From the NCBI GenBank assembly GCA_030390025.1, contig JASTWF010000033.1:6512001-6576000 (forward strand): a stretch of 64,000 nucleotides of DNA. The letters are read 5' to 3'. This stretch comes from Squalus acanthias (Eukaryota). The notes under the pieces were generated by a model. It saw only the letters and a program-made list of their open reading frames with translations. It was not told where the DNA came from and did not search any database. A program made the translations under genes and the position numbers. Every line of letters starts with the position of its first letter. Within the stretch, counting starts at the first letter, position 1. Shown one piece after another: positions 20,036 through 55,500 of the stretch.

Positions 20036-20044
20036 TCTTGAATC

Positions 20045-27584: not shown

Positions 27585-27671
27585 GATGCGGAGATGCCGG
27601 TGTTGGACTGGGGTGGACAAAATTGAGAGGTCGCACAACTCCAGGTTATAGTCCAACAGTTTTATTTGAAA

Positions 27672-27713
27672 TCACAAGCTTTCGGAGCTATCGATTGCTC
27701 CTTCCTCAGGTGA
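27672..27713 (-). ncRNA. Minimal type I hammerhead-like motif in Penelope pLTR
   Basis: Reverse complement UCAC-CUGAGGA-A-GGAGC(aaucgaua)GCUCC-GAAA-GC-UU-GUGA. Confidence 0.7.
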
Positions 27714-29330: not shown

Positions 29331-29660
29331 TCCGGACTCGAGTCGTCGTTAGCTTGTTCACAGATGTGATTCCCAGTAAAAAAGTAAAAATTTTCCCAGT
29401 AAAAAAGTAAAAATTTTAAAGCTTTTCGTTTTACATACAGACGGCAGCTTTTGACACGTTAGAACCCCTGCGACTACACCTCATTGTCTCAGTTGTATCT
29501 TGCTATGTCTTTGATGTGGTACCTTCCTGGCTGACTTAATTAACTTTATCACACCTCGGCAGATAGTCAGGATGATTTAATTTAGTGGTCTGCAATTGTA
29601 AGGTACACATGCTTTGTTTTCTATCTATATATGCTTTGGCGATTCTGTATCTAATTTACT

Positions 29661-29702
29661 TCAACTGAGGAAGGAGCAATCGATAGCTCCGAAATCTTGT
29701 GA
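29661..29702 (+). ncRNA. Minimal hammerhead-like motif, mutated copy
   Basis: Same core, but UCAA in helix I and GAAAUCUU breaks the AAGCUU palindrome. Confidence 0.6.
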
Positions 29703-29789
29703 TTTCAAATAAAACTGTTGGACTATAACCTGGTGTTGTGCGACCTCTCAATTTTGTCCACCCCAGTCCAACACCGCCATCTCCGCATC

Positions 29790-32468
29790 ATGACCACTAT
29801 CGACACCACAAACTGCCGGCTCAAAGTGGAGAGAATCGCCAAGAAGATCGCGCATATCGACACCGACATCAAGTATCTACAGAGATGCAAGAAAGCAGAC
29901 AAGATCCCGAAAGGACTACAGATCACGAACGCACTCAAGTCGACATACAACACAGACTACGCTGAGAGACTCTGCCGTCGTACCTCTCGCACACTCCTCA
30001 ACCATCTCGTACACCAGCTCTACAGCAAACGCCACAACCTCGAAACCAAGATAGAGTCCATGCTCTCAGCCTGTGCTCAGGACACAGCAGACCAGTTACG
30101 AGACACCACCAAACAGACGAGGCAACAGAACTACGCTGCCTACATGCGCATCAAGAACAGGAAGCTGGAGAAACTCGGCATCACCACCAGCAGCAACCAA
30201 GCCTCCCCCGGTACCACGGCTGCAACCACAGGGAAGTCCATCGTCAACTTGTCCGACCATACCCTTCAACCAGACGAAATCGAAGTTCTCGCCCTAGGGC
30301 TCAAGTTCTGCCCAACCTCCAAAATGGACCCCATCGGTCTCGCGGCAGACACGGAGGAATTCATCAGGAGAATGAGGCTCCGGGAATACTTCCACAAATC
30401 CCAAGATGTCAGCAACAAACCCAATGAGACAATCAATGATCCAGAACAGCAGACAGAGGGACTCGCGGTGCAGCAACCGAAGAAAAAAGAGTCAAACTGG
30501 ACCCCTCCGGAGGGTCGCTGCCCCAAGCTTGACATGTATGCTCAAGCTGTCAGGAGATGCATCAACGCCAGATTCATCAGCCGCACTCACAAGACAGTCC
30601 AGAATGTCACCCGAGCACAACGCAACGCCATCCACGCTCTCAAGACCAACCGCAACATTGTCATCAAACCAGCGGACAAAGGAGGAGCCATCGTCATACA
30701 GAACAGAACGGACTATTGTAAAGAAGCATACCGACAACTGGACAACCAGGAACACTACAGACAGCTACCCGCAGATCCGACCAAAGAACACACCCGCCAA
30801 CTCAATAGACTGATCAAGACCTTCGATCCAGACCTTCAAAACATCCTACGCGCTCTCATCCCACGTACTCCCCGCGTGGGAGACTTCTACTGCCTCCCAA
30901 AGATACACAAAGCCAACACACCCGGACGTCCTATCGTATCAGGCAATGGAACCCTGTGTGAGAACCTCTCTGGATACGTCGAGGGCATTCTGAAACCCAT
31001 CGTACAGGGAACCCCCAGCTTCTGTCGCGACACTACAGACTTCTTACAGAAACTCAGCACCCACGGACCAGTTGAACCAGGAACACTCCTTGCCACGATG
31101 GACGTATCGGCACTCTACACCAGTATCCCCCACGATGACGGCATCGCTGCAACAGCCTCAGTACTCAACATCAACAACAGCCAATCTCCAGACGCCATCC
31201 TACAACTCATCCGCTTCATCCTTGACCACAATGTCTTCACCTTCGACAACCATTTTTTTACCCAAACACACGAAACAACCATGGGGACCAAATTCGCACC
31301 CCAATACGCCAACATCTTCATGCACAAGTTCGAGCAAGACTTCTTCGCTGCACAGGACCTCCAGCCAACGCTGTACACCAGATACATCGACGACATTTTC
31401 TTCCTTTGGACCCATGGCGAAGGATCACTGAAAAGACTACACGATAACATAAACAAGTTCCATCCCACCATCAAACTCACCATGGACTACTCCTCAGAAT
31501 CGGTCTCATTCCTGGACACACGAATCTCCATCAAAGACGGACACCTCAGCACTTCACTCTACCGCAAGCCCACGGACAATCTCACGATGCTCCACTTCTC
31601 CAGCTTCCACCCTAACCATGTTAAAGAAGCCATCCCCTATGGACAAGCCCTGCGAATACACAGGATCTGCTCAGACGAGGAGGAACGCGATGGACACCTA
31701 CGGACGCTGAAAAACGCCCTCGTAAGAACGGGATATGACGCTCGACTCATCGATCGACAGTTCCGACGGGCAACAGCGAAAAATCGCATAGACCTCCTCA
31801 GAAGGCAAACACGGGACACAACCAACAGGGTACCCTACGTCGTCCAGTACTTCCCCGGAGCGGAGAAACTACGCCATGTTCTTCGCAGCCTTCAACATGT
31901 CATCGATGACGACAAACACCTCGCTAAGGCCATCCCCACGCCTCCACTACTTGCTTTCAAACAGCTGCCTAACCTCAGAAGTACCATCGTTCACAGCAAA
32001 TTACCCAGCTTTCAGGATAACAGCGACCACGACACCACACAACCCTGCCATGGCAAACTCTGCAAGACATGCCAGATCATCAACACAGATACCACCATCA
32101 CACGTGAGGACACTACCCACCAGGTACATGGTACATACTCATGTGACTCGGCCAACGTTGTCTACCTCATACGTTGCAGGAAAGAATGCACCGTGGCATG
32201 GTACATCGGCGAGACCATGCAGACACTGAGACAACGTATGAACGAGCACCGCGCAACAATCGCCAGGCAGGATTGTTACCTCCCAGTCGGGGAACACTTC
32301 AGCAGTCAATGACATTCAGCCTCGGATCTGCGGGTAAGAGTTCTCCAAGGCAACCTTAGAAACACACGACAACGCAAAATCATCGAGCAGAAACTGATAG
32401 CCAAGTTCCGCACTCATGAAGACGGTCTCAATCGGGATCTTGGGTTTATGTCACGATACATGACGTGA
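29790..32468 (+). pseudogene. Penelope RT + GIY-YIG endonuclease ORF (~892 codons) with one premature stop at 32310
   Basis: IKPADKGGAIV, LPKIHK, GRPIVS, MDVSALYTSI, RYIDDIF, NVVYLIRC...YIGET. TGA at 32310 reads GGA in the other two copies. Confidence 0.95.
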
Positions 32469-32798
32469 TCCGGACTCGAGTCGTCGTTAGCTTGTTCACA
32501 GATGTGATTCCCAGTAAAAAAGTAAAAATTTTCCCAGTAAAAAAGTAAACATTTTAAAGCTTTTCGTTTTACATACAGACGGCAGCTTTTGACACGTTAG
32601 AACCCCTGCGACTACACCTCATTGTCTCAGTTGTATCTTGCTATGTCTTTGATGTGGTACCTTCCTGGCTGACTTAATTAACTTTATCACACCTCGGCAG
32701 ATAGTCAGGATGATTTAATTTAGTGGTCTGCAATTGTAAGGTACACATGCTTTGTTTTCTATCTATATATGCTTTGGCGATTCTGTATCTAATTTACT

Positions 32799-32840
32799 TC
32801 ACCTGAGGAAGGAGCAATCGATAGCTCCGAAAGCTTGTGA
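32799..32840 (+). ncRNA. Minimal type I hammerhead-like motif in Penelope pLTR
   Basis: TCAC CTGAGGA A GGAGC AATCGATA GCTCC GAAA GC TT GTGA. Confidence 0.72.
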
Positions 32841-33159
32841 TTTCAAATAAAACTGTTGGACTATAACCTGGTCTTTTGCCAATAACATTGAATCTGTGTC
32901 CTCTGGTTACCGACCTCACTGCCACTGGAAACAGTTGCTACTTGTTTACTCGGTAAAAGCAATTTAAGATTTTGATCACCTCGATCGAACCTCCTCTTAA
33001 ACTTCTCTGCCCAAAGGATTTCCTGGGAATTTAGGGTCTAATTTAGCCACCACTGATATTGTATACAATTAATGCAAAATATAGCAGTAAACTGAGTATT
33101 GAGACAACTGTATATACAGGAATTAGGTGCAGTTATTAGGTGTTATATGAATGTGTTTT

Positions 33160-34530: not shown

Positions 34531-35191
34531 TGTAACCTGCTTTACACTTAATAAAAACCGCTGCTACTGAGTAGAGGTGGAAATTTTGAACGAATTGTGA
34601 GATGATGACAGACAGATTCAAAATGAGGTAGATAAGTGTGCGATCCTTTGTTTGTCTGGATTCAAAATGGAGGACGTCTGTATGTAGTCCTTCGTTTGTA
34701 AGACCACATGGACAGGAAGGGGGTACACAGGGTGAAGAGAAAATCCCGCCCTCCACAGACGTCAAAGGAACATGATCGTATCATACAGAAGGAACACCAA
34801 TCAGGGAAATTAGGGAGTGAAACTGACGAATCAGAGGAAGGCAGCTAAAAAAAACACAAGGGAGCCATGCAGGAGAACATTATAAAGGGAAGCTAAAGCA
34901 GCGTGAAAACTCAGAACAAAGGAAGCTGTTTGACTGTCCAGTCAACTGTTGAAAGCTACCACCAACTCGGATGGATCATGTGTGGAGGAGTGTATGCATG
35001 AAAGTCAGACATTGAGCGTATGTATTGCTGGGGAACGTTTATGTACGCTTCACTTATTAAACTGTGGGCATATATTATGGCCCAAGAATTCGGCCGTTCT
35101 CGGGTGAGTACGCGCTGCGTACCTGCATGCACTGCGCATGCGCGGGAAACCGGCACTTGCGGTATGGCGAAGGGGGCAGTTCCTAGGTGAA

Positions 35192-35728
35192 ATAACAACA
35201 GAAAACGCTGGAAAAACTCAGCAGGCCAGGCAGCATCCGTGGAGAGAGAAAGAGAGTTGACGTTTCAGGTCGATGACCTTTCATCAGAACTGGGAAGAGC
35301 TGGAAATCAAATAGATTTAAGGCCAGGGTAAAGCTGGGAAAAGGGGGAGGGGATAAAGGAACAAAGGAGGAGATGAAGAGACATTAAGAGACATTAAGAG
35401 ATATGCAAGGCTAGAGGTGGTGTTAATGTGACAGATTAAGGCTGAATGAAGTGTGAAATCTACTGGCAGAATGAAGGACAGCTGCCAGCTTCTAGGAGGA
35501 AAAAAAAGGTGGGGGGGACAAATAAAAGGGTGGATAAAATAAAATATAAATGTGATTGGAGCTGAGGTTATGATCTAAAATTGTTGAACTCGATATTGAG
35601 TCCAGAGGGCTGTAGCGTGCCTAAACGAAAGATGAGGTGCTGTTCCTCGAGCTTACGCTGAGCTTCCGTGGAACAGTGTATTAGGCCGAGGACGGTGAGG
35701 TCAGAGTGGGAGTGAAGCGGTGAATTAA
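35192..35728 (-). mobile_element. 5'-truncated Penelope element (second family) inside the MITE
   Basis: 14-bp TSD AGTTCCTAGGTGAA (35178-35191, 35729-35742); minus strand encodes HSHSDLTVLGL...RKLEEQHLIFRLGTLQPSGLN. Confidence 0.9.
35255..35291 (-). ncRNA. Minimal hammerhead motif with canonical core
   Basis: Reverse complement AGUU-CUGAUGA-A-AGGUC(auc)GACCU-GAAA-CG-UC-AACU; GUC triplet. Confidence 0.75.
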
Positions 35729-36611
35729 AGTTCCTAGGTGAACCGTGTGCGCACTAGAGGATGCACGCACACAGCACACGTAGGTTTTTTTTCAGGTTTC
35801 AACGCGAGGGTAAGTATGGAAGATTCTACACAAGTAAAAAGGACGCGCAAGACCCCTTTTGAACAAGGTAAGTAGCTAATTAAGTATAATTTTAATTTTT
35901 TTCAACAGGTTTATCTTTTCTAGAGACTTTAAAGAAAGGTAAGTTTGTTTTTATAACTTTCAAAAAGTATTTTAATTTATTCAAAAATTTAAATTTTTGT
36001 TTAAAGTGATTAATTTATTTAAGTATATTTATTTTATTAATGTGATGGTTTTTTTTTTATTTATTTGAGCTTTAGCTGTTCTTTTGGAGCCGATTTCAAT
36101 TCACAGATTTGACAGGTCTCCTGTCAAATCTATGAATGAAAGATGGTCTGCTGCCATTGGCTCTCCATGGCCCACATGATCCCAGGGGTCGCATCGCACT
36201 AACTGCGCCCCTGGAACACGCAAGCACTGCGCGCCGGCTCTAGGGAGAGGCCCAGGGCCCGAAGTTCCTGTGGGCCCAAAACACAATGGCAGGCGCGGTA
36301 AGTAAGAGCGCGCGCGATCCTTACCCCCTTGGCAAGCCGGCCACCCGAATTTCTAGGCCATTGGTAGGGTACTTATATGTACGCTTGAATTAATAAATTG
36401 TAGCGCATAGATATTGCTGGTGTACTTATATGTATGCACGAATCAATAAACGGTAGGGCATATATATATCTCGGATACTTGTATGTACGCATGAATTAAC
36501 AAACTGTAGTTTGAATAAAGACCAGTTTTATAGATAGCAAACTTATCTGTCACTGTTACGCTTATTTCTAATTCTCGAGGTCCGAACAGCAGTAGGAGTA
36601 AGTCTTACAGA

Positions 36612-36629
36612 TTCGCGACACGAAGGGAC
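36612..36629 (+). promoter_or_regulatory. Degenerate primer-binding site, probably tRNA-Arg
   Basis: TTCGCGACACGAAGGGAC directly after the LTR; resembles TGGCGACCACGAAGGGAC. Confidence 0.6.
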
Positions 36630-38164
36630 CTTGAGTGAAAAAAACGTTTTTGTTAATCTCAATGGCGGATAAGCAAGGGCAAAATGTGCAAGCAAAATAA
36701 GCAAAGGGATGGACAGAAGGTCGATTAGGAAATAACGCATGGTATAAGGCGATATGACTGTTCGCCTATGAAAGGCAATCAGTTCAAAATAAAAAAGTGG
36801 TGGAAGAATAAACCAGAGAGATTGAATAACTGAAACGAAATGCGAGCGACAGGGAACCAGTGGTGAACCACTTGCTGAAAGACTTAGATGAACGGAGTGC
36901 TCATGGGGAAAATACTGAATGTAAAAATAATACAGAGCAGCAGAATGAGGTGGGAGATAAAGAGGGAAACACATTTAATTTGCAATCTGAAAACTCGGCA
37001 AAGGAAGAAGAAAACATTGTTTTGGGAAGCCATGAATAGCTGCTGATATGACAATTTTGTAGAGAAAGGAAAAAAGGAAAATTACTGTTTTACCACACAA
37101 AGCTATCAGCGTTTGTGCCGAGACAAATGTAGCACAAGGTTTGCTGAGTGAAAGGAACCTTAAAGGATGCTGGAATTTCAGTTTGTGTGAAAGTTTGTGT
37201 TAAAGTGTGGAAGTTTTAAGCTGCAGTATTCCTTTTGTCTGAAAGTCTGTTTTTGAAACAAAGTGTCTATTGCATTTGTTTTAGCTCCAACCACTTTTCT
37301 GTGCCTGGAGCTGAAGCCGTTTAACCCTTTGTTGCATGTAGGATGGTGAAAAGAGGACAGGAGAAAAGGAAAGGTTCTGCTCCTTTTCGTATTCCATTGT
37401 AGTGATGTTTGAAAAAACGTGTATGAATGTTTTGAAGTTACAAGCTGAGGAAAGCTTCTCCCTCTTTTCAAGTGGTAATGGTTAGTTTAAGTTATTGGTT
37501 TGAATTGAATTGCAGTTATTGAGGTTAATTAACGTGTTTAAATGCAAACCTTTATTTTGGCCTCCGTGAAATTCTGGTTGGTGTAAATTGTGTGAAAGCC
37601 TCTAGTTCCGGACATGAGGCAATCACATCAACAATTGGTATTTTCGAAATTTATGATAAATTTCTCGTATGTCTGCTCAGGAAAATAAAAGTAAATACTA
37701 TTGTGTCTGGAGTTTATCACAGAATGTTTATGAAGTCTGATGTTTTTACCTGCTGAAGTGAATCTTAACAGATTTTAAAGGCAAAAGATTTTGCAAAAGT
37801 AACAGTATTTTATTGACGAGTTATAAATGGTATGTGGCTTTGTTTTCTTTTGAAAAGAAAAGTTAACTAACCAATTAAATTGAAGTGATGCAATTGCGTG
37901 TGTCTGACAATTTGCCTCGCCATCTTGCAAACCGCCAAATGCATTAACCATTTCTGCCGGCAGCTGGGCTTTTTTATTCACCACATAATAACTTTTTATT
38001 GATGAATGAATTTTAGAGATATTGGGTATTATTAAATTTAAGTTTGTTTAATTTGAGTGGATCTATGCCCACATTGACAGAAGGGAATCAGGAATTGACG
38101 AATTAACCCATTCGGCTTGTAGGAATGCCCCAATGGATTGTCTGTTTTTTTTTCTTTTAATGCT

Positions 38165-38865
38165 GCAAGATTCCTAGGTTGGAAGAAGTCTTCCCGTGCA
38201 AGTCGACCACAGCCTCCTGGACGGCCAGGACCCTATTTAACGTAATATGCTCCAGCTGGGGACTTCCTCGTGTGGTAAGCCACTCTGAAATTGTTAGGAA
38301 TTGAAAGGAAATTGCATGTGACCCACAACCCAAAATCATCGGGGTTTGTGAAAAGAATGAACTTTACGTTGAAGTCGGCCTTACGAAAGGAATTAAACAA
38401 TCAGCAAACTAAGTGGGATGAGGTATTTCGCCTAATCCTTATGGGGATACATAGTAACAAATTCGAAGGAACGGGTCACTCTCCTCATGAACTGGTAATG
38501 GGGAGACCCATGTGAAACCCCTCAGAACTGTTGCTCCCCACTCTGGCTGATAAGCAAATTAAGGAGGCGCCTCTGGACAAATCTCTGAGCAACCTGCGGG
38601 GAACTTTAAAGTAATTGAATAAGAGGACCGTCCACAAAATTGGGAAGGCACAGCAACACGACCGCTTACACTTGGCTATGAGTAAACCCCAGGAGTGGGA
38701 AGTAGGGAACCAGGTAATAGTACGGAACTATGTGAGAGTGGGAGTTTTTGAACCATTGTACAAGTGACATTATAACATTACTGATAAAGATTGTCCCCTG
38801 GTATACGCTGCTGAGTTACCTAAGAGGATCAAATGGTTCCATATTAATCAGATGAAGCACCACCG
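38165..38865 (+). pseudogene. pol: Integrase C-terminal half
   Basis: WGLPRVV, HNPKSSGFVKRMNFTLK, TGHSPHELVMGR, KWFHINQMK. Confidence 0.88.
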
Positions 38866-39423
38866 AAGAAGGGAATTGGGATGGAAAAAGGAGAATAGAA
38901 ATGTTCTGATCCTCACAACCCTGAGTGAAGGGTTGGACGTGAGTGTGATGTGGTGGGATGATGATCCAGGGATGCCAAGGCAACCGGGTCCTGCTCTCGG
39001 AGCAGCAGGAACACAGCAACCTGCAGCAGTGTCCACGATTGTGCAGGGTCAGGGAGCACAATCCTGTGCAGGGTCAGGGACCACAATCCTTTGCAGGGTC
39101 AGGGACCACAATCCACTCTAAGACGAAGTAGTTACCAGTTGAAAATCAACCCAACATGGATCCAACTGGGAACAACATTTGCACCCTCAGGAGGAGCAGG
39201 GAGAAAACCGAAAAGGAAATGATGTTGAATAAGCTTATGTGAATATTACCTGTGTTACGTGTTACAAAAGCTCCAGGATGGGGAAACTCCTGTACGCATT
39301 GAGCGCTTTGATGCTCGTGGTGGAAGGGATTGAACTATATCAGGAATCGCAGCAGCTCGGAAACTGAACCAATGGAACCACAAACTCACTGGATACCGAG
39401 TTTTCTGTTGTAAATGAGATGAA

Positions 39424-40690
39424 TACATAGATACATAGAAGATAGGAGCAGGAGTAGGCCATCCGGCCCTTCGAGCCTGCTCCGCCATTTAATGAGATCA
39501 TGGCTGATCCTCCAATTCAGTATCCCGTCCCCGCCTTCTCTCCGTAACCCTTAACCCCTTTTGCCTGTAGAAATATATCTAATTCCCTCTTAAATATATT
39601 TAATGAGCTGGCGTACACTGCCCTCTGTGGCAATGAGTTCCACAGGTTCACCACCCTCTGAGTGAAGAAATTCCCCCTCATTTCTGTCCTAAATGGTTTA
39701 GCCCTTATCCTTAAATTATGTCCTCTAGTTCTGTTCTCACCCGCCAAGGAAAACATTCCTTCTGCATCTCGTCTGTCTAGACCCGTCAGAATTTTATACA
39801 CTTCTATGAGGTCCCCTCTCAATCTTCTGAACTCCAGTGTGTACATCCCTAAACTACATAGTCTCTCCTCATAGGTCAATCCCGCCATTCCTGGTATCAG
39901 CCTGGTGAATCGCCGCTGCACCCCCTCCATGGCAAGAACATCTTTCCTCAGATGAGGCGACCAAAACTGTACACAGTACTCGAGGTGTGGTCTCACCAGT
40001 GCGCTGTACAGCTGCAGCAAGGTATCCCTGTTCCTGTATTCCAACCCTTTTGCTATGAAGGCCAGCATACCGTTTGCCTTCTTGATCGCCTGTTGCACCT
40101 GCATGCTCGCCTTCAGTGACTGGTGTACAAGAACACCCAGGTCTCTCTGTACTTCCCCCTCTCCCAATTTATTGCCATTTAAATAATAATTTGCCCTCCC
40201 GTTCCTGCACCCAAGGTGGATAACTTCGCACTTGTCCACATTATAGTGCATCTGCCATTTATCCGCCCAATCACCCAGTCTGTCCAAATCGCTCTGGAGC
40301 TTCCTGGTCTCCTCCTCTGAGCCCACCCCCCCCTCCTAGTTTAGTGTCGTCTGCAAATTTGGAAATGCTGCATCCGACTCCCTGATCCGGGTCATTAATG
40401 TAAATTGTGAACAGCTGGGGACCCAGGACAGATCCCTGTGGTACCCCACTTGTTACTGCCTGCCATTCAGAAAATGAGCCGTTTATTCCAACTCTCTGTT
40501 TTCTATCTGACAGCCAGTTCTCTATCCACGTCAATACTTTCCCCTTTATCCCATGAGCTTCAATTTTCCCTGCTAATCTTTTATGTGGGACCTTATCGAA
40601 GGCCTTTTGGAAGTCCAGGTACACCACATCTACTGGCTCTCCCCCATCTATTTTACCAGTTACTCCCTCAAAAAATTCCAATAGAATGGA
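39424..40690 (-). mobile_element. Young CR1 3' fragment inserted in element B
   Basis: [32 protein letters not shown]; long open frames. Confidence 0.95.
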
Positions 40691-40978
40691 ACAATGAAAA
40701 ATCAAACTATAACATGTTATAATTGTACAGTGAGGTTAACGGAGCAGAGGGTTCATGAGGGGCAAATGATTTGTTTCAAATGCTCAAATGAGATCACTCC
40801 AAATGGGAGGATCCTGGAACTCGGTTTGCACCGGGTGAGACCACACATGACCTGAGATTGAGGTAGGCAGGCGGAATTGTGGCTACCACGTTAATTGATA
40901 GGACAAGTTACTGTTGGACAAATTTCTGTTCAGGTAATCACACAGGATTATATATGTGTGTAAACAGAAATTTCTCCC

Positions 40979-42763
40979 ATGATGATTCACAAATTGAAAA
41001 TCGTAATGATAATATTCAATGCCCTGATTAGTCAAAAGAAGCCATTCAATTAAAGGCGAAAGAGAAACTAATGCCACCCGATGAAGGGAGTGAAAAGTGC
41101 CACACCCCATCCCCTGCTTCAATTAACGGATTGGTATTAGTTCAGAGTGAGTTAACAATGTTAAATGATGTTGTATTAGATGCGAGGGAGGTTATTATCA
41201 ACGTGCCTAGTCTTGCCTTGCCTACATGGTGCAATGAACCCACTAGGAACTAGCTAAGAGATAGAAAAGCGCAGTTAATGAAAGCAGGAGAGGAACCTCA
41301 AGCCACGAAATCCTGGTACAGAGGAGAAAGCGCAGTGTGGTCAATAATATAGCAACAATGTGGAATACCGCATCAGGATGGGTAAATACAGGGGATATTA
41401 TGAGCCTGAACCATCAAATGGGAAAACTAAGAGAAAAGTACAGAAGGCATTAAGAAACCAGAATAGCATAGTTTAAGTACAATTAGAAGCAGAATTGACG
41501 TTGACAATTCACATGCAAGGGTTGGTCAAATTGCTGGAAAAGCAGGCCATAAACAACATGACAAGGGAGGATAGAAACGCCTCTGATCAGGCAGCACAAA
41601 ATGATGCATGCGCGATGATGAGTTCTTGGATTCTACAAGACAAAGGGAGGAATTTGAATAGAATAGCTGAGGGTAGGGTTCCAATTTGGATGGAAGATGA
41701 ACACCTTAAGGCAGCGGAATGGTATCAAACAAACTTGACAGTGTGTCAGTTGCGAAGTCTTACTGTGGTATGTGTCGCCCTACATGAAGGTAATCAGACT
41801 AGCGATGATAACTTGATAGGAATCATACTGAGAATACCCGTAATGTCCAAACCTTCGGCACCACTGCGGGTGTATAAGGTAGCCAATATGGGTTTCCTGA
41901 AAGATAGTGTTTTATATAAATAGCCCGGATATGTTGTTAAATATAACCAATCTCTCTATGAGTTAAAATTACATCGATTTAAGACCCAAGGAAGAACCAC
42001 CATGTGTATGTATAATGTTTTGAATGATGAAGAGCCGTTATGCGGATTGAACTTGACAAGCATGTCCCAGTATCAGTTTCAGGTCACTGCCGTAAGTTCG
42101 AAACAATATAACATCGTTGTTTATAAGGAACAGGGTATCTATTCTTGGACCACCACAGTAACAAAGTATAAATATGGGCACAAGAATGCTACAATATGCC
42201 TGGTATCTAACAGTACTATCTGTATTAAGGCTAAAAGGATGGTAAAAATCGGAAACAGGACTATTCTGCCTTTAATGGATCAGAATCCAATACATGTCAA
42301 TGCATCAAGCGGGGTAGATGATTTGGGGAAATAAGTGTCCATTTTTGGATATTGGTTACCTTGGAGAAATGAAAATCTCACTGAGTTTGTCAAACTGATT
42401 GGAGAAGTCGGAAGGACATTCTCAATATTAAAAGGGAGGAATTTTGCTCATGCCAGAATAAAAACCTCGTTAATGAACGAGGCGACTTCTTGGTGGGATT
42501 TGGGATTTAATCGAATGGACTTAGGTCCATGGGTAAGACTGTGCTCACAAGCTCTGCTATGGTTACCGTTAATGTGTGTGATCGCCAATATGTGGGAATG
42601 GGGAAGGCGGACAAGACTTAAACAAAAAAGAACAAGGGAAGACAATTTAGGCATACCAGGGAACTGTTACGGAATCCTCTTTAATAATGTGAAATGTGGG
42701 TATAGATATTGTATTATAGGGGATAAAATGGACTATGTCCGATTGGAATACATACTGCTCTAA
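40979..42763 (+). pseudogene. env: Near full-length env-like fusion glycoprotein with stops and frameshifts
   Basis: RRKR (41322-41333) then SVVNNIATMWNTASGWVNTGDIMSL; Cys-containing ectodomain; SWWD...PWVR then a hydrophobic TM-like segment. Confidence 0.82.
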
Positions 42764-42816
42764 CTCTGGTGAAATGTCTGCACATGAATAAACATGAGAG
42801 ACATTTAAGGGAGGAA

Positions 42817-43597
42817 AGTAAGTTTTTAAAATTTGCAATGAAACCGCTGCTACCGTGTGGAGGACGAAGTTCAGAATGAATTGTGAAATAGTTACAGACG
42901 GATTCAAAATGAAGGACATCAGCATGTGTTCTTTGTTTGTGAAGACACAAAATGGTGGAAGTCAGCAGGGGGTCCTTTGCCTGGTGGTCAGCACATGGTC
43001 CTTTGTTTCAGAGGCCGCATGAACAGGAAGGAGGTACATGACTAACAAGGAAGACCCGCCCCCAGACACCTCACAGGAACATGAACGTGTAATGCGGAGG
43101 GAACTCCAATCAGGAAGGTTTGGAGTGAAACTAATCTATCAGAGGTAGGCAGACAGTGATATAGGAGAGGGGCTAGCAGAAAGGCTTTATAAAAGAATAA
43201 CCCATAGGCGGGAAATAAAAACACATAAAACAGATCAAAAGAACAGATGAACAGAGAAGGCAGTCCAGTCTATGTTTTGATTTACGACTTTCCCTGGACC
43301 GATCACCCAGAGATAAAGGAGTATGTATGAATGTCGGACATAGAGCTTAGATATTGTTAAAAGGGATACTTTTATATTTGGTTGACATGGAATAGAAATC
43401 GCTCAAAGGTAGCGTGTAAATTGCTGGGAAATACTTTAATGTGAGGGTAAAATGGGTGCATATTGATTGCAACGTACACTTGAGTTTTAAACTGTAGTGT
43501 GAATAAAGACCAATTTTATTGATCACAAACTTGTCTGTCATTGGTACGCTTCGTCGTAATTCATGAAGTCCGAAACGTAGTAAGAGAAAGGTTCACA
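42817..43597 (+). repeat. 3' LTR of element B
   Basis: AAACCGCTGCTAC, GATTCAAAATG and ACTGTAG..TGAATAAAGACCA shared with the 5' LTR; follows the PPT. Confidence 0.8.
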
Positions 43598-44084: not shown

Positions 44085-45917
44085 TAACCCATTAGCTTAC
44101 CTGTTGTAATCGAGTAGAGTCCATAAGAACAAAAGAACATCAGAAATAGGAGCAGGAGTAGGCCAATCGGCCCTTCGAGCCTGCTCCGCCATTCAATGAG
44201 ATCATAGCTGATCTTCTGCCTCAACTTCATTCACCGGCCCTATCTTCATCTCCCTTGATACACTTACTAGTCAGAAATCTATCGACTTCTGTTTTGAATA
44301 TACACAATGACTGAGCCTCCACATCCCTCTGGGGTAGAGAATTCCAAAGATTCACCACCCTCTGTGTGAAGAAATGTCTTCTCAACTCAGTCCTGAATGG
44401 CCTACCCTTTAATCTGAGGCTCTGGCCCCTGGTTCTAGATTCCCCACCAAGGGAACCATTTTCCCAGCTTCCAACCTATCAAGCCCTGTAATAATTTTGG
44501 ATGCTTCAATGAAATCCCCTCTCATTCTTCTGAATTCAAGAGAATACAGGCCTAGTTCAATCAATCTCTTCTCATACGACATTTCCACCATCCCAGGAAT
44601 CAATCTCGTGAACCTTCGTTGCAATCCCTCTATGGCAAGTATATCCCTCCTTAGGTAAAGAGAACAAAATTGTACGCAGTACTACAGGTGTGGTCTCACC
44701 AAGGCCCTATATAATTGAAGTAAGACTTCTTTACTCCTGTACTCAATCCCCTTGTAATGAAGGCCAGCATACCATTTGCCTTCCTACTGGCTAGCTGTAC
44801 CTGCACATTCATTTCAGTGATTCATGTACAAGGACACCCAGGTCCCTTTTAGCATCTGCATTCCCCAATGCTTCACCATTTAGGAAATACTCTGCCTTTC
44901 AGTTTTTTTTAACAAAGTGGATAACTTCACATTTTCCACATTATATTCCATCTGCCATGTTGTCGCCCACTCACTGAGCCTGTCGATATCCCCTTGCACT
45001 CTTTTCACATCCTCTTGACAACTGACACTGACACCTAGCTTTGTGTCATCAGCAAATTTTGAAATGTTACATTTAGTCCACTCATCCAAATCATTGATAT
45101 TGATTGTGAATAACTGGGGCCCAAGCACTGATCCTTGCACTAGTCACAGCCTGCCATCCTTAAAAAGACCCGTTTATCCCTACGCTTGGTCTTCTCGCTG
45201 TTAACCCATTCTCAATCCATGCTAGTATACTGCCCCCAATACCATGTGCCCTTATTATGTTCACCAACCTCTTGTGTGGGATCTTATCAAAGGCCTTCTG
45301 AAAATCCAGATACATATATCTATCGGTTGCCCTTTGTCTACTCAACTAGTTATAACCTCAAATAACTCCAACAGGTTTGTCAAACAGGATTTCCGTTTCA
45401 TAAATCCTTGTTGACTCTGCCCAATCTTACTATTAGTTTCGAAGTGCCAGTTATTGCATTCTTTATAATATATTCCAGCATTTTCCGAACTACTGATGTG
45501 AGGCTAACAGATCTGTAGTTCCCCGTTTTCTCTCTCCCTCCATTCTAAAATAGCAGGGTTACATTTACTATCCTCCAATCTTCAGGAGCCGTTCTATAAT
45601 CAATATCATTTTGGAAGATGACAACCAATGTGTCCACTATCCCAATGGCCACCTCTTTCAAATACCTAGGATGTAGATCTTCCGGTCCTTGGAATGTATC
45701 GAATTTTAGTCCCATTAATTTTGCTCGTACTGTTTTTTTACTAATAGTAATTTATTTAAGTTCAGCATTCTCGCCACACCCTTGGTTTTCTCCAGGATGC
45801 CAGTAGGCTATTGTTTTGATGTGCATGAGTGTGTGTGTTTAATAAACTTATTCCAAATTGTTTCAAAAGAATTGGTCTTGCTGTCAATTCAACGCCAGTC
45901 GAAATAAAATGCTTACT
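44085..45917 (+). repeat. Truncated 5' LTR of element C, split by a CR1
   Basis: 44085-44127 and 45803-45917 match adjacent parts of the 3' LTR (~52350-52391 and 52397-52511). Confidence 0.85.
44123..45800 (-). mobile_element. CR1 3' fragment
   Basis: [28 protein letters not shown]. Confidence 0.93.
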
Positions 45918-45921
45918 TAAC

Positions 45922-45939
45922 TGAGGGCTCGTCTGGGAT
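45922..45939 (+). promoter_or_regulatory. Primer-binding site, tRNA-Pro
   Basis: TGAGGGCTCGTCTGGGAT vs canonical TGGGGGCTCGTCCGGGAT (2 mismatches), 4 nt after the LTR. Confidence 0.85.
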
Positions 45940-46109
45940 CTGGTGAGACAGCTTTACATAATTCTTTTAAACAATTGGAAATTTCGGGAGTTGCGATTCT
46001 TACCTGTGGTGCGAAGTTTAAAAGTAAATTGAAAAGTCACAGGAGGAAGGGATTGGGAGCAGAAAAAAAGCCAGCAAAAGATGTAGCTTTAGCCTAACAT
46101 GAGAAAATA

Positions 46110-47955
46110 TATGGAAAGGTGACCATAAGCGACTTATAAGAGTTACGGGCACGATGCATCTGTAAGGGCCAACATGCGTCCTTTGGGGAGCTCGTGGCAT
46201 TTATCCAGGAGAGGTTAGATGAGGGAAAGGTAAGGCCCAAACAGGCAAACGGTCTCTTGGCATTCGGAACACATTACTGTGCTCGGTGAGATGAGGAATT
46301 AATGAGGCAAGATGCAAAAGAGATTCGAGATTTAAAGGGAGAGATACAAGATTTAAAAGAGCTAAAAGTCAAAGAGATTAAACTAAAAGAAAAAGTGATT
46401 CAAAGTATGAAAGAACAGAAAGAAGAAGGCATCCAGCTTGTTAGGCAGTTAAAGGAGGGAGAACTCCATCATTTCAGACAAGAAATCGATCGATTAAGCC
46501 ATAGTATCAGGCAACTAGAAAGAGGAGCCGAGCAGGCAGCTTCATTGCTACAGCAGCAAAGCCTGTCAAATTTAAATGCAGGAGCAGCAGTCGCTGCAGC
46601 AAGTGAAACCAGATTATATTTCAAGAAATATAAATTGGAAAACCGGGGGCTCCAGCAGGAAGTAGAAGACGTTAGGGGGCATTAAGGAAGCAATTAAGAA
46701 ACCACATAGGGAGGCAGACCACTCCCGGTGCTACCTAGAAATAGCGCGACTAAAGAGTAAATTAGGGCAGCAACAGCCTCTAGTATCCGCAGTAACACGG
46801 GGAGCCATAACAGAGACAACAGAAGGGGATGAGGGGCAGACAGATTGGGAAGAGGAAGGCAATCAGTATAATTCCCAGGAGGGTGGTGAAGGATCGGTTA
46901 CCTTGGAGACGCAATGACCAAATGTAGCAGTAGTGACCACCTCCTTACAGCGTAATGTGCATGTTCACATCACTGGTAACCATACCGACTCACGGCCCTT
47001 ATCTGGTGCTGATGCCACGGAGTGGAGCCACGAGTTGGGGCCCATTAATGATGGGGACGACCCACTGGTAGTTAATAGGAGGTGGGCAGATTTCAGGAGG
47101 GTTCACCCTGAGTTAGAAGGGGGAGATTCCTCCTCTTGGCCAGTTCCACTTCTTTAAAGAATAATCTGCCAGATGCGATCCTCCAGCGTGGCACAGCGAC
47201 CGATGCAGTCGTGACCGAGATCCGAAACCATTTAGGGATCCAATCTTAAACTTAGTGGATATGCTTAGTCAGACCAAACAGCGCCCAGAAGAGACCCTAG
47301 AAGCTTCAGTAATCGCCTGTACGATATCTATGAACGTACCCAGAAACAGACACCCGCAAATTCTGCAGCAGGAAAGAATCAGGAACAATTCCAAACGATG
47401 TTCCTGACCAAATTCCACTCTTTAGTTCAAACCACCCTGGGCATAGCCGTGAGGCCCACCGATCAGTGGACAGATATAGAGACAAACTTTCAAAGAGCCT
47501 GGGAGATGGTAAAAGACCAGTTAAAGGTGAAGGCACCACCCACCGTAAAGAAACCAGTGTCAGCGGTGGAGGGATCTAGGTACTACCCCTTTAGGGGACA
47601 GTGCTTTAATTGTAAGAAGGAAGGTCACCGAACAAAACACTGCAGGAGACCCAGACAGGCACCGGACCACGATGCAACGCTTAGATACCTCCCGAGAGAC
47701 GAACCCAAATCCTCTGGGAAAGAACAACAATTGGCTCAGTTAGTTATCCATCTAAAAAAGGACGAATCCAAGCCCTCTGGGACGGATCAACGATTGCACC
47801 AATTGATAACCCTCATGAAAGCCCAAATTGTCACGAGGGAGATGCAAAATCATTTACCGGTGCACACAATCGCCAATGCACACCCACTGGGAATGGAAAA
47901 TCCTATTGTCAATGCACACCCATTGGAGGGACCCCTCCAAGGATCCACCCTATGA
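46110..47955 (+). pseudogene. gag: gag with long coiled coil and one CCHC knuckle
   Basis: E/K/Q-rich heptads 46302-46685; CFNCKKEGHRTKHC. Start is approximate. Confidence 0.85.
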
Positions 47956-50900
47956 CGGTGTTTGGCCCCCAAAGTTTGGTCGGAAGTGGGGTTCCGACGT
48001 GATGGTAGCGGGGAGACCAGTATTCCTTGTAGTCTTAAAAAGAGGGCCAGCAGCTGATTATGCTTATAGACACTGGCTCAGCCGTTACCATTATTCACAT
48101 CCCATACCCTGAACGCCATGCAGCGGAGGCCAAGGGTTGTATGTTCCTTAAAGGGTTTAATGATGATACAACCACCGCGTATACAGGGAAGGCCGCTGAA
48201 CTTCAGTTGGGAGGCCTCACCTATAAGGTCCCAGCGCCCATGCTAATGACCAAACCCGGCGGAAGGGGAATTTTTGCGACTGATGTGTTGGATCAGTATG
48301 GCACGTTAATAGATTACAATCGGGACTGTTTTTGGATGGGATTAGGAAATAATGCAAAAGTGAAAGAAATTTCAGATGTTCACTCGTTTTTTGCTATTAA
48401 AAATCCATCCGAGTATGACCCTCTGGGGAGCGAAAATGAAGCTGTGGCAAAACTAATTCAGGAACACCTAGCGCTGTTTGCCACGTGCAAGCACGATTGT
48501 GGAGTAATGGCAGGCGAAGAGTCTATTGAGGACACCCCCACCCATTCACTAAACAGTACCCCATACCAAGGGAGAGTCAACCTTACATCCGAGAAACCAT
48601 AAAATCCCTAGTCGAGCAGGGTGTTGTTAGGACATGCACTTTCACAACCAATTCACCCACATGGTCGGTTAAAAAACCTGATAGCAGCTGGCGACTGACT
48701 ATTGATTATAGAAAGTTAAATTCTGTAACGCCAGCCTGCTCACCGGTAGTAAGAGAAGCTGAAAATTCTGCTGGTTCCAAGTATTCTCGACCCTCGACAT
48801 CCCCAATGGATTCTCGAGTATCCCTGTTAAAAGAGAGGACCAGTACAAATTCGCGTTCACATTTGAGGACCAGAGCCACACCTGGACATGCCTGCCTCAG
48901 GGGTTCCACAATGACCCCACGATCTTCCACAAAAAATGGCTGCAGTTTTACAAGACTTTTCCCATCCCACCTGCTTGCTACAGTACGTAGACGGTCTACT
49001 GCTGGCAACCGATAACATGGAGGAGCATCGGTCCCTTTTGCACGAACTGTTGACATTGTTGGTTCAGGCGGGACTAAAGGTGAATCCCCGTAAGGCTCAG
49101 TTGGTAATAAAACGGGTCACCTTTCTGGGAGTGTCCATTTCTCCAGAGGGGACGTCCCCCGACTCCCACAAGGTGGGGATAATAAAGCGACTACCATTAC
49201 CCACTTCCAAAACAGCCCTACGATCATTCTTGGGTTTGGTGGGGTAACAAAGCACTTAATCCCAGGCTTTGCAAATTTTGCAAAGCCCCTGCATGATTTG
49301 ATAAAACTGCAGTTGATGACAGATGCCCGGCATGACTGATGCTCACACCCAGTCCGTGACGTAATTAAAAACAGCAGTGACACAATCCGCATGTCTGATT
49401 CGTCCGGATCCCAAGCAGCCCTTCCATTTGGAGTTTGGGGCCACAGAACAAAGCCTCGCCGCAGTTCTGTGCCAAACGCGATCTAATCGACGACAGCCCA
49501 ATGCATATGCGTCTTGAAATCCTGCAGGGGGCAGAAAAGACGTATACCGCGTGCGAGCGCCACCTGCTGGCCGTCTTCTGGGCGGTACATTTTTTCAACT
49601 TTATTTCAGGGCTACAAGCGACCATCCTTCAGTGCGCTCACCCGCCTCTGAACCTACTGATGCAACCTGGAGATTCGCTAGTTTCCTCGCAGCGTCTCAG
49701 CAAATGTACATTGCAATTTATGGAAAGAGACATTGGTATCATTTCCCAACCCACCACATTGCTGCCACAATTTCTGGTTTATGAGGGGGAACCGCATGAA
49801 TCATTAACTTTGAGACCCATCCTGTGCAGAAAGTGCACATACAGGGAGCCCCAGATGTCTACATCGATGGGTCCTCATATCACATCGAGGGATCCCGCCA
49901 CACCGGGTATGCTTTGGTATTGCCAGAGTGAACCATCCAGCGACGATGCAACCGACAGTCCTCACAATATGCTGAAATCGCCGCACCTCTAACTGCCGTG
50001 AAAGAAAACTCAGATAGACCCGTTAATATTTGGTCCGATAGTGCCTATTCTATATACAGCATGCTCTCCTTGTCCCTATACCACAAAAATGACTACCGCA
50101 CAATAGACGGTAAGGCCCTGGTCCATGGGCGATGGTTATGCCTGCTCTGGTCATACCTTAAACAGTGATCCCAACCCTGCTTTATTGGAAAGGTAGCAGC
50201 CCATAGGAAACGAGTTCCACATAGTGAGGGAAATTCCAGAGCAGAGAGAGCAGCCAAGGACGCTGCGATTGATGGGGAGATAGAAGATATAGTTGTTGAG
50301 CCCTGCAATGCTATTAGCAAGGGCTCCCCAACGGATCACATAGATTTAGAATCCCTGCAGGAGCAATACTGGCCATAAGCCTTTGTAAGCGCCTGGCACG
50401 AGGAAGGCACACCCCTTCCTCAACCAACAGTCTGGGCCCCCAATACCAGACTAGCCACTGCCCCTGACTCAGCGGAGCAGTTGCTGATGTTCAAGAGAAA
50501 GCCACACACCAGAGTTGGGTCAGGAACTGCTCTCCCTCTTTCACTCCAACCCCACGGCAGGGCACTATTCGGACCTGGTAAACTTCAATGAGGTAACATC
50601 CACAGCTTGGTGATCTTCCATGTGGGAAACAATCAACCTACATGTGGCACGATGCCTATCGTGCCTGCGGCAAAATCCTCCCATGTGCACTAACCGAGCC
50701 TCGCTTCAAAGCACGCCCCCACCGCAAGGGCCATGGACTCACCATCAGATACACTTCATTGGGCCACTTCCACAGGCGCAAGGCAGTTTTCAGCATGCCC
50801 TAATGGTGGTGGATACATTCACGGCAGCCAAAACATTATTACATCAGATGTCTTGTAGGTGGGGAATACCGGTACAAGTGGACAGCGATCAAGGTTCGCA

Positions 50901-51520
50901 CTTTACCGGTAAGATTTTTACCCATCTGCAGGAAATGATGTGGATAAAACACAAACTATATATTGCTCACCACCCCCAGTCGTCCGGAGGGGCCGAAAGG
51001 TGGAACAGGACCCTCTAGTTAATGTTACAAAAATTGTGTGCGGACCACCACACTCAATGGGCTAACATGCTGCCAATGTGCTTAATGGCAATGAGGTCCA
51101 GACATCATAAGACAACAGGAGTCTCCCCATATCAGGCCATGACGGGGAGACTCATGAGAACGCCAGGCCAGCTATCACTAACGGGGATGAGCCCCTTGAC
51201 AAATGGAACCATGTAGTTCCAAATGGCTGGAACAATTGGTAGATCACACCAATCAGATGAATCGATTTGTGGTCACGAAATTGGGGAAGTCAAAAAGCCA
51301 AGTTAAAAGGTACTTTGAGAAGAACGTACATCCCTTTGAGTATCAGGTGGCGGACACCGTAATGATTCCAACTTATGGGCAAAAGAAGCATGCCTTTGAG
51401 CCCAGGAAGTGGGGACCGCATACGATTATAGTCCGATTGAATCACGCAGTTTATTTGATTCAGTTACGGGGAAAAAGGACATTGAGTACCAGAAATGCTG
51501 TCATAGTAAACAGTTAAAAA
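47956..51520 (+). pseudogene. pol: pro-pol, multiply frameshifted
   Basis: LIDTGS; WRLTIDYRKLN; TWTCLPQGFHN; LQYVDG; YTACERHLLA; second RNase H (YIDGS, WSDSAY); integrase CLSC, VDSDQGSHFT, HPQSSGGAERWN. Confidence 0.93.
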
Positions 51521-51562
51521 CTGCCAAAGAGTAAATACTACACTGATCTTTTTTTCCCACAG

Positions 51563-51769
51563 GACAGGATACGGATACAGATGACACAGAACAATCCCAT
51601 AAAAAGCAGAGCTCTACAGAAGCTAGGAGCTAGCCCATGGTGGGAAACAATGTATAATGTTAGACAACACCCCTGGCTGAGAACCCTCTCAATGCTTATG
51701 AAACTGGCACAAGCAATAATTGTAGTGGTGGGGATCATCATGAACCACATTATGCAAGCCCTGAGATGA
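51563..51769 (+). pseudogene. env: env C-terminal remnant directly after a splice acceptor
   Basis: CACTGATCTTTTTTTCCCACAG acceptor; PWWETMYNVRQHPWLRTLS + hydrophobic stretch resembles SWWDLGFNRMDLGPWVRLCS of element B. Confidence 0.6.
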
Positions 51770-51820
51770 TAAACCAAATGAGGGGTCAATAAGGATATTT
51801 CCCCCTCAAGGCGGGGAATC

Positions 51821-52511
51821 TGTAAGAATAAAAATATATATTTTGTATGTGTGATGGACTCGAGACTATTAATATAAGATGTATGTAATAAAAATGAATT
51901 TGATGTGTATGTATTCATCTCCCTGGGAGCGGAGCTCAAGGCAACGGCGCAAAACTTAACAAAAGACACCTGCATAACTGGATAACCCCCCACAGAGAAT
52001 CACCATCGAAACTCAACATTGAAACTCAAGTGCCATTAACAGGTGTTAATAAACAATTAACTGAAGCAAGAAATGGCACCAGCCATTGCAGACAGATAAA
52101 TGTTCAAAGGTAAACTAATCAAGAACTGCCATGAAACTATGACCCCTTCCTGGGGTCTTAGCAAATTAGACTAGAGACAATGGACTGAAAAAGTTGTAAA
52201 ACAAGGAACTCAAAGGCGCGCTCTCTCTCTCTCTCTGTGGTTGACCACATGGAAAAACAAGAAGCCCACCCTCTGCAGACCAGACCAAGAAGCAAGGAAA
52301 AAGCCCGTGTGCATTGCTTGACTCAGGGAAGTAAAAGTCTGTGTAAATGTAACCCATTACCTCACCTGTTGTATTCGAGTAGAGTCCATAAATAGTAGTA
52401 GACTATTGTTTGATGTGAATGCATGTGTGTGTTTAATAAACTTATTCCAACTTGTTTCAAATGAAATCGTCTTGCTGTCAATTTAATGCCAGTCGAAATA
52501 AAGAGCTTACA
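51821..52511 (+). repeat. 3' LTR of element C (691 bp)
   Basis: TGTAAG...CTTACA inverted termini; PPT AAGGCGGGGAA before it; AATAAA inside. Confidence 0.92.
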
Positions 52512-55500
52512 TATTATATTGCAAACTGATATTTCATCGCAATGTTCTATTGCATTGCAAAAGACGATTATATTGCAGTGATATTCATTGCAATGCGCTA
52601 TTTCATTGCAATTGACTATTATATTGCAAAGTAATATTCCATTGCAAAGGTCTATTGCATTGCAAATGATGATAATATTGCAAAGCGATATTCCATTGCA
52701 ATGTTTTATTGCATTGCAAAGGATGATTATATTGTAAAGCGATATTTCATTGCTATGATCTATTGCATTGCAAAAGACGATTATATTGCAGTGATATTCC
52801 ATTGCAATGTGCTATTCCATTACAAATGACTATTATATTGCAAAGTGATATTCCATTGCAGTGTTCTATTGCATTGCAAATGACTATTATATTGCAAAGT
52901 AATATTCCATTCCCATGTTCTATTGCATTGCAAATGATGATAATATTGCAAAGCGATATTCCATGGCAATGTTCTATTGCATTGCAAATGACGATTATAT
53001 TGTAAAGCGAATTGTCATTGCAATGTTCTATTGCATTGCAAAATACGATTATATTGCAGTGATATTCCATCGTAATGTGCTATTGCAATGCAAATGACGA
53101 TTATATTGCAGCGATATTCCATTGCAACGTTCCATTGCATTGCAAATGACTATTATATTGCAAATTAATATTCCATTGCAAAGGTCTATTGCATTGCAAA
53201 TGATGATAATATTGCAAAGCGATATTCCATTGCAATGTTTTATTGCATTGCAAAGGATGATTATATTGTAAAGCGATATTTCATTGCTATGATCTATTGC
53301 ATTGCAAAAGACGATAATATTGCAGTGATATTCCATTGCAATTAGCTAATACATTGCAAATGACTATTATATTGCAAAGTGATATTCCATTTCAATATTC
53401 TATTGCATTACAAATGGCGTTTATATTGCACTGATATTCATTGCAATGTGCTATTTCATTGCAAATGACTATTATATTGCAAAGTGATATTCCATTGCAG
53501 TGTTCTATTGCATTGCAAATAACTATTATATTTTAAAGTGATATTCCATTGCAATGTTCTATTACATTGCAAATGACGAATATATTGACAATTGATATTC
53601 CATTGCAATGTTCTATTGTATTGCAAATGTCTATTATGCTGCAAAGTGATATTCCATTGCAATGTTCTATTGCATTGCAAATGACGATTATTTTGCAAAT
53701 CGATGTTCCATTGCAATTTGTTATTTCATTGCAAATCACTATTAAATTACAACGTGATATTGCATTGCAATATTCTATTGTTTTGCAAATGTCTATTATA
53801 TTGCAAAATGATATTCTATTGCAATGTGCCATTGAATTGTAAAGAACTATTATATAACAACGGGATATTAGATTGCAATGTTCTATTGTATGCAAATAAC
53901 TATTATATTACAAATTGATATCCCATTGCAATCTGCAATTGCAATACAAATGACTATTATATAGCAATGTGATATAACTCTGTAATGTTCTATTGCATTG
54001 CAATTCACTTATTTTATTGCAAAGTGATGGTGCATTGCAATATTATATAGCATTACAAATGACTACTATATTCTTAAGTGACATTCCATTGCAATGTTCT
54101 ATTGCATTGCAAATGACGAGTATTTTGCAAATCGATATTCTATTGCAATTTGCTATTGCATTGCAAATGATTATTATATTAAACAATTATATTCCATTGC
54201 AATGTGCTATTGTTTTGCAAATGACGAATATATTGCAAACCGATATTCCAGTGCAATATGCTTTTGCATTGCAAATGTCTATTATATTGTGAAATGATAT
54301 TCTATTACAATGTTCTATTGCATTACAGATGACTACTATACTGTTAAATGATATTCCATTGCAATGTTCTGTTGCATTGCAAATGACTATTACATTGCAA
54401 ACTGAAATTCCATTGCAATGCGCAATTGCATTGTAAATGAATATTATAATGCAAAGTGATATTCCGTTGTAATGTTCTATTGCATTGGAAATTACTTATT
54501 TTATTGCAAAGTGATATTCCATTGCAATGTTCTGTTGCATTACAAATGACGACTATATTCTTAAATGATATTCCATTTCAATGTGCTATTGCATTGCAAA
54601 TGTCTATTATATTGCAAAGTGATATTGCATTGCAATATGCCATTGCATTGCAAAGGAATATTATATAACTACGTGATATTAGATTGCAATATTCTAATGC
54701 ATTGCAAATAACTATTATATTGCAAAGTGATATTCCATTGCGATGTGCAATTGCAATGCAAATGACTATTATATTGAAAAGTGATATTCCATTGCTATGT
54801 TCTACTGCATTGCAAATGACGATTATATTGCAAAGTGATATTCCTTTGCAATGTTTTTGCTTTGTAAATGACTATTCTATTGCAAATTAATATTCCAATG
54901 CAATATTCTATTGCATTACAAATGACTATTATATTCTTAAGTGATATTCCATTGAAATATGCTCTTGCATTGCAAATGACCTATTTTATTGCAGAATGAT
55001 AGTCCACTGAAATGTTTTATTGCATTGCAAATAACGATTACATTGCAAAGTGATATCCCACTGCAAAGTGCTATTGCATTGCAAGTGACTATTATATTGC
55101 AAAGCGATATTCCATAACAATGTGCAATTGCATTGCAAATGACTATTACATTACAAAGTGATATTCCATTGCTATGTTCTATTGCATTGCAAATGACGAT
55201 TATGTGGCAAAGTGATATTCCACTGCAAAGTGCTATTGCATTGCAAATGACGAATATATTGCAAAGTGATATTCCATTGCAATGTTCTATTGCAATGCAA
55301 ATTGGAAAAGAACATAAGAACATATGAAATAGGAGCAGGAGTAAGCCATTCGGCCCTTCGAGCCTGCTCCACCATTCAATGATATCATGGCTGATCTTCT
55401 GCCTCAACTCCATTCACCGGCCCTATCTACATATCCCTTGTTGCCCTTGCTAGTCAGAAATCTATCGACTTCTGTTTTGAATGTACCCAATGACTGATAA

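Follow-up and report, generated by a model that had tools for sequence, protein, structure and literature searches.

The window analysed here, a 64,000-nucleotide stretch of Squalus acanthias DNA, contains at 34531–43597 a dead, decayed endogenous retrovirus (ERV) that lacks reverse transcriptase (RT) and belongs to a family designated A. Very probably, the envelope protein (Env) of this family is a class I fusogen of the paramyxovirus F type, as predicted from a model of a relative, which carries a probable Ig-like N-terminal domain and is combined with a canonical retroviral Pol, neither lokiretroviral (Loki) nor foamy.

The element lies on the forward strand. Its 5' LTR (34531–36609, ends approximate, TG...CA-like) contains an unrelated insert at about 34850–36480, and its 3' LTR (42818–43597) matches both LTRs of the sister copy L031 (67%) and the LTR parts of the sister copy L106 (77–81%). 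The two LTRs were compared over two intervals, 34555–34844 with 42841–43152 (69%) and 36501–36602 with 43489–43590 (80%). Because they are only 69–80% alike, compared with 95–96% in sister LTR pairs, the window copy may be a chimera. Dating the copy by its LTRs was rejected, as they are interrupted and may differ in origin; in this copy no PBS was identified and no target-site duplication was recognised. Between the LTRs, a decayed gag remnant (36696–36891) is 74% identical in nucleotides to the gag region of L106 and L031/L039, and an integrase remnant (core and C-terminal part, 38176–38965) was matched by tblastn with the family-B Pol, over residues 985–1225 only (46–51%). Protease, RT and RNase H were not found in the window copy.

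The env gene opens with a signal peptide (MGKLLYALSALML), its ATG being at 39278. Its first 49 codons (39278–39424), which include one stop, are 90% identical in amino acids to residues 6–57 of the unbroken frame L004. The gene is then split by a minus-strand LINE, a non-LTR retrotransposon (39425–40683; Pfam RVT_1, E 1.4e-16) that we take to be of the CR1 type, and resumes at 40685, env being in register with sister copies on both flanks. A second copy of this LINE is present at 44137–45374 (69% match). A previous sequence-only reading had placed the env start at 40979, with 118 codons before the furin site RRKR and 475 after it. The counts stand: RRKR is at 41322–41333, 114 codons separate it from 40979 and 118 are counted through it, and 475 codons lie between it and the stop at 42761. 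The start does not, as the ATG at 40979 is in another frame, which closes after 24 codons. Two sister frames without interruption in the region have 275 and 276 residues from Met through RRKR, in the order signal peptide, probable Ig-like domain and F2-like part of about 82 residues. The short-N/long-C split, described in the same reading as typical of F, therefore applies to the F-homologous core (82 residues before cleavage) and not to the whole protein.

In the window copy, the probable Ig-like domain (C...GLYMC; 40730–40965, boundaries approximate) is broken by a frameshift; its counterpart in the family-B Env, by alignment, is the region with V-set Ig matches. The F2-like part, as delimited by the comparison of the family-B model with F, extends from 41122 to 41333 and ends in RRKR. 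It is followed by the F1-like ectodomain (41334–42487; profile match, E 7e-110), with the fusion-peptide position, heptad repeat A, Cys-rich beta domains and heptad repeat B, and then (42488–42763) by a Trp-rich, WW-containing membrane-proximal stretch (SWWDLGFNRMDLGPW), a TM segment (about 42530–42596) and a frameshifted cytoplasmic tail. The heptad region, Cys-containing ectodomain, Trp-rich region and TM seen previously were all recovered. For a fusion peptide, the residues that follow RRKR (SVVNNIATMWNTASGW) are rather polar.

Besides the LINE, the env of the window copy carries seven or more in-frame stops, small deletions and frameshifts near 40.8, 41.3, 41.4 and 42.6 kb, and Pfam gave nothing relevant with its pieces or with the post-cleavage read (P0001). 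The C-x6-CC and LQNR..LD patterns were absent from P0001 and from the unbroken relative P0005, in agreement with the earlier observation that no CKS-17 or CX6CC motif was evident; the CX6CC pattern was matched in one of seven env proteins tested, a frog protein, at its TM end. Gamma-type Envs are defined by an ISD (CKS-17) together with CX6CC in TM (PMC9967133, available portion), a combination that these proteins do not show.

A protein search of the 3.7-Gb genome yielded 150 listed matches, 53 to family A (57–100% identity) and 97 to related families (32–44%); these counts are lower bounds, 150 of 6238 candidates having been scored. Because 53 of the listed matches are 57–100% identical to it, the window env is not a chance frame. 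At the nucleotide level it is 89–92% identical to six family-A sisters and 87% identical to the env of L106. L106 itself carries gag, PR, RT, tether, RNase H and IN, and the order LTR-gag-pro-pol-env-LTR was found in L106 and in family B. In both families, gag and pro-pol share a reading frame, separated by just one TGA. A tether and a second RNase H are present in the family-B Pol and in L106; these are common to all retroviruses and are not diagnostic of Loki. Two family-B elements (L033–L034, G000:C3:90693500-90713499) form a tandem pair that is 99.98% identical over 8.9 kb, owing either to a very recent duplication or to an assembly artefact.

Most family-A copies lack pol. Among 30 copies, two (L106 and L118) had their own RT, 14 had IN only, three had gag and PR only, 10 had no pol piece and one lay beside a family-B element. 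This split is biased, as seven of the 30 copies were chosen by a query combining IN and env, and it refers to the 6–9 kb upstream of env, insertions being able to shift pol beyond a 10-kb stretch. The env gene was nevertheless selected: in 28 copies (two tandem near-duplicates excluded), the ratio of replacement to silent changes was 565/192 = 2.94 for private variants, versus 75/73 = 1.03 for variants common to at least three copies (Fisher p 2e-8). Private variants are neutral-like and shared ones are depleted in replacements; therefore, env was functional while family A spread. In conclusion, these counts show that env was under purifying selection during the spread of the family.

The fold was predicted on the unbroken family-B Env L033 (784 residues from near the start), to which the family-A and window Env is linked by homology (28% identity over 543 residues, E 7e-59). 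With a 65-row alignment, AlphaFold gave a mean pLDDT of 61 (core 80–90) and a pTM of 0.42; the single-sequence prediction (pLDDT 34) was unusable. Compared with the PDB by Foldseek, this model matched paramyxo- or pneumovirus F in all 38 matches listed (best E 1.9e-11). VIA aligned 333 residues with hPIV3 F (Z 12.7, rmsd 10.6), and a wide structure search gave Z 11.1 for F and Z 8.4 and 8.1 for foamy Env. The overall fit is loose, with TM-scores of about 0.3 by query and rmsd of 5–35. The match starts at model residue 246 (NGLV motif), which corresponds to F residues 25–38, the start of F2; the F2 equivalent comprises about 85 residues, and the preceding residues, about 240, are extra. The best matches in BFVD were lispivirus glycoproteins, walleye epsilonretrovirus Envs, baculovirus F and paramyxovirus F, and the first match in the ESM Atlas was Fusion glycoprotein F0 (0.93, 205 features). 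Sequence and profile searches of the PDB with the env family did not find F, and Pfam Fusion_gly matched three of 20 family members (best E 0.014). The predicted model of the relative thus combines an F2/F1 fold, a furin site, heptad repeats, Cys-rich beta domains and a TM segment. A gamma-type TM was absent among the fold matches, which by itself excludes nothing. Together, these predictions support an F-protein-like Env in the window family, not a gamma-type SU/TM. The F-like envelope proposed from the letters of the window is thus supported, and the comparison with viral fusion proteins suggested at that time, carried out on the family-B relative, gave only F among the listed PDB matches and no gamma-type TM.

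The extra N-terminal domain is probably Ig-like. Residues ~90–175 of the L033 model match V-set Ig domains in the wide structure search at middling scores (Z 5–5.8). The family-A N-terminal region alone gave weak V-set leads (0.85–0.89) and no match in Pfam, and the best Pfam Ig_3 match had an E of 0.0098; the family-A Ig-like region is without the Trp of the family-B motif. Because some members of the env family (eel, coelacanth) have no extra domain, the Ig-like head is not universal.

A profile search of 1.84 billion proteins returned 63 homologs at E<=0.001. Nineteen were looked up; of these, seven came from sharks or rays, seven from frogs and one each from coelacanth, eel and rohu. By sequence homology, the env family thus spans cartilaginous fish (sharks and rays), frogs, coelacanth and teleosts, and identity is about 20% across its shark, frog, coelacanth and teleost members. 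Three database proteins with a related env are from skate (75%) and sawshark. A further homolog search added only teleost-type relatives of P0219, none of them named as a Loki or SnRV Env, and a Loki Env was absent from the results of all the searches made. Clusters from Mantella, Bombina and Discoglossus (P0149, P0160 and P0168) contain many near-identical annotated env copies (16, 3 and 32 members).

This distribution bears on whether the F-like env was acquired late and by this lineage alone, with an RNA virus or some other element as donor, in which case the gene would be uninformative about the ancestral retroviral Env. Such a capture is possible, if rather less than probable. It is favoured by the divergence between Env A and Env B (28–31% identical) compared with that between their RTs (70–80%), which indicates that env moves, or evolves, independently of pol, and by the presence of arthropod lispivirus glycoproteins among the best BFVD matches. 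It accounts poorly for a family that extends over sharks, frogs, coelacanth and teleosts at such low identity, and for the matches to the walleye epsilonretrovirus Envs (E 2.5e-11 and 7.4e-10) and to foamy Env.

As the window copy has no RT, its sister L106 stood in for it in phylogenetic trees. A homolog search supplied the references (the first tree used 65 of its 120 listed matches), which were labelled by motif against the supplement alignment of PMC7947760. Loki was represented by three rows, all from eel (P0022, P0033 and P0042), SnRV by P0024, and foamy by one long-branch row from an element with a PF03408 env in the same genome; gamma, epsilon and ERV-L labels were assigned here from motifs and Pfam. 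Five trees were built (77, 42, 44, 32 and 29 rows, the 29-row tree under a mixture model). In all of them, families A and B and another element of the window, element C, were placed inside canonical retroviruses (100/97–99); the L106 and family-B RTs grouped at 100/100, inside canonical retroviruses at 100/98–99. The shark–frog–coelacanth group that holds the three had a bootstrap of only 80–94, and the branching order inside canonical retroviruses was without resolution. Loki was sister to all canonical retroviruses, as published. The AU test rejected a grouping of A and B with the Loki-motif RTs (p 0.022); for a 14-row group, defined after the first tree, p was 0.0003 with Loki and 0.22 with SnRV. 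The RT motif of the family, LPQGFH.SP.IFH, is like that of SnRV, and the Loki motif is PFGY.N. Scanning IMG/VR identified no RT relatives. The RTs of A, B and C are neither Gypsy nor epsilon, and neither a Metaviridae RT nor a single RNase H was found; the grouping with ordinary Gypsy or epsilonretroviruses that an RT phylogeny might have revealed, according to the sequence-only reading, was not seen. These trees support the assignment of families A and B to canonical retroviruses, and not to lokiretroviruses as that reading had it.

Accordingly, it is most improbable that the element is a lokiretrovirus, which would be the first in cartilaginous fish. The F-like Env with an RXKR site and the dual RNase H of the relatives speak for this idea, and, by eye, the NGLVL and post-cleavage motifs line up with those of the Loki Envs in the PMC7947760 supplement; the RT motif and the two AU values contradict it. 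Moreover, the Loki Envs displayed there have a signal peptide directly before F2, a hydrophobic fusion peptide and no extra domain, and in this genome a Loki RT query leads to a single different locus, which is decayed and is not of family A. A decayed RT (L120, G000:C7:114567220-114567552) groups with the eel Loki-motif RTs (100/96) and is likely a real lokiretrovirus fossil; no Loki env was present within 30 kb of it.

That families A and B belong to the SnRV clade proper (CmiERV lineage I type), only the Env fold being new, is nearly an even call. The RT motifs match those of SnRV by eye, the AU test does not reject the grouping, and SnRV-related ERVs have been published for elephant shark (CmiERV lineage I, PMC4422223, accessible text) and coelacanth; no supported join of SnRV to the shark–frog–coelacanth group was, however, obtained in any of the five trees. 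The earlier suggestion of an uncatalogued family may hold for env, SnRV-related ERVs of cartilaginous fish being already on record.

Foamy Env is known to be F-like (PMC11468914, available part), and its Z scores in the wide search would agree with a foamy-like virus. This origin is nevertheless very unlikely: the shark-family Envs do not match PF03408, the foamy Env family, although PF03408 matches 11 other places of the genome; they have a signal peptide of the cleavable type; their extra domain is N-terminal, not inserted; and the AU test gave p 0.033 against A and B with the single long-branch endogenous foamy row. The 11 places with a foamy-type env (L069–L079) were accompanied by a foamy-type RT upstream in four of the six stretches fetched.

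Several other elements were observed in the window. Element C (45802–52513) has LTRs that are 88% alike, gag-pro-pol with a dual RNase H, an RT in the same retroviral group as families A and B, and only a C-terminal env remnant (51572–51775); a tblastn env match was absent in eight of its eight sister copies. A broken element at 6300–9930 contains pol together with an env from the F-like family, and its 89-residue RT piece branches separately, together with P0021, P0016 and the foamy row (99/95). Because this RT branches elsewhere, the F-like env type may occur on several pol lineages. An env-family fragment (E 5e-12) is present on the minus strand at 19957–20337. At 27583–32879, an 869-codon open frame with an RT, presumably Penelope-like, lies amid inverted repeats of 739–789 nt that are 99% alike; this element looks very young.

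We favour the interpretation of an F-type Env on a canonical Pol, and propose that Env would be made with a signal peptide and cut at the RRKR motif, probably by furin. The F2-like strand would remain with the C-terminal subunit, whose heptad repeats, Cys-rich beta domains and TM suggest that it refolds like F1 to bring about membrane fusion. Since retroviruses have no separate attachment protein, receptor binding would most likely be ensured by the N-terminal Ig-like domain. The family spread under purifying selection on env, mostly, judging from the copies examined, as pol-deleted genomes, which intact helpers such as family B are likely to have packaged and copied. The window copy later decayed and received its LINE insertion. 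Spread of defective genomes by complementation has been described (PMC8922424, portion available).

More tentatively, and with somewhat less than even confidence, these elements may form an unnamed deep lineage of canonical retroviruses of sharks, rays, coelacanth, frogs and teleosts, with an F-type Env that bears an Ig-like head on several branches; together with the Loki, foamy and walleye Envs, they would then point to an F-type ancestral Env of vertebrate retroviruses, of which the gamma-type SU/TM would be a later replacement. Wang and Han (PMC9040795, available text) preferred separate origins of Env in canonical retroviruses and in Loki, since the Envs of the two showed no similarity. 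An F-like Env in one more canonical lineage, distinct from foamy viruses and present in four vertebrate classes, would make the question of the ancestral Env testable by a structure-based tree. A small N-terminal Ig-like head would be a third way to add a binding module to the F scaffold, beside the RBD insertion of foamy viruses and coronavirus S1. An F-like env alone cannot identify an element as a lokiretrovirus, and screens that demand the standard TM motif may overlook this group.

Among known systems, Loki (PMC7947760, PMC9040795, accessible portions) shares with the shark family gag-pol-env, the tether and RNase H, and an F-like Env that has a signal peptide, an RXKR site, a coiled coil and a TM segment. 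In the shark family, by contrast, the RT falls within canonical retroviruses, Env has some 190 additional N-terminal residues whose fold is probably Ig-like, the post-cleavage peptide is polar and a membrane-proximal WW motif is present. Further traits of Loki are an IN close to CGIN1, an RNase H that groups with that of foamy viruses and, in some, an smc gene; in the available part of PMC7947760, Loki was found in none of six chondrichthyan genomes. SnRV-like, clade Huo and class III ERVs (PMC4422223, PMC4977317, PMC8922424, as far as accessible) share its RT motifs and hosts (cartilaginous fish, coelacanth and amphibians), and SnRV-like ERVs are, like it, among canonical non-gamma retroviruses, but the comparison concerns RTs alone and gave no supported RT clade in our trees, and the accessible text gives no account of the Env fold in these ERVs. 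F-like or Ig-bearing Envs are undescribed in SnRV-like or shark ERVs in the accessible text of the literature searched, which included PMC10435555, PMC12583693, PMC13709493, PMC12287698 and PMC11089739, subscription journals and Repbase being outside its coverage; the available part of a preprint (bioRxiv 10.1101/2023.10.26.564294) announces vertebrate ERV work to appear elsewhere.

With paramyxo- and pneumovirus F (PF00523; 1ztm, 3maw, 3rki), the shark-family Env shares a predicted fold that begins at the start of F2 and continues through F1, an F2 equivalent of about 82–85 residues and about 450 residues after cleavage, whereas it is only 11–15% identical, has an extra N-terminal domain, is encoded by a retrovirus and has no partner attachment protein. 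The walleye epsilonretrovirus Envs (WEHV1 Q9WHI8 and WDSV A4GTG3), classed as non-gamma in the accessible part of PMC9967133, match the L033 model through their BFVD structures, but they are 1159–1317 residues long and the shark-family RT is outside the gamma/epsilon clade; our literature search found nothing on their likeness to F. Foamy Env (8rm0, 8rm1; PMC11468914, available part) also has an F-like core in a canonical retrovirus, but there the RBD is inserted within the F scaffold, whereas the extra domain is N-terminal in the shark family, and the RTs are apart. F-like Envs in Loki and foamy viruses and SnRV-related ERVs in a cartilaginous fish were thus known; what appears new here is an F-like Env, as predicted, in a non-foamy canonical lineage.
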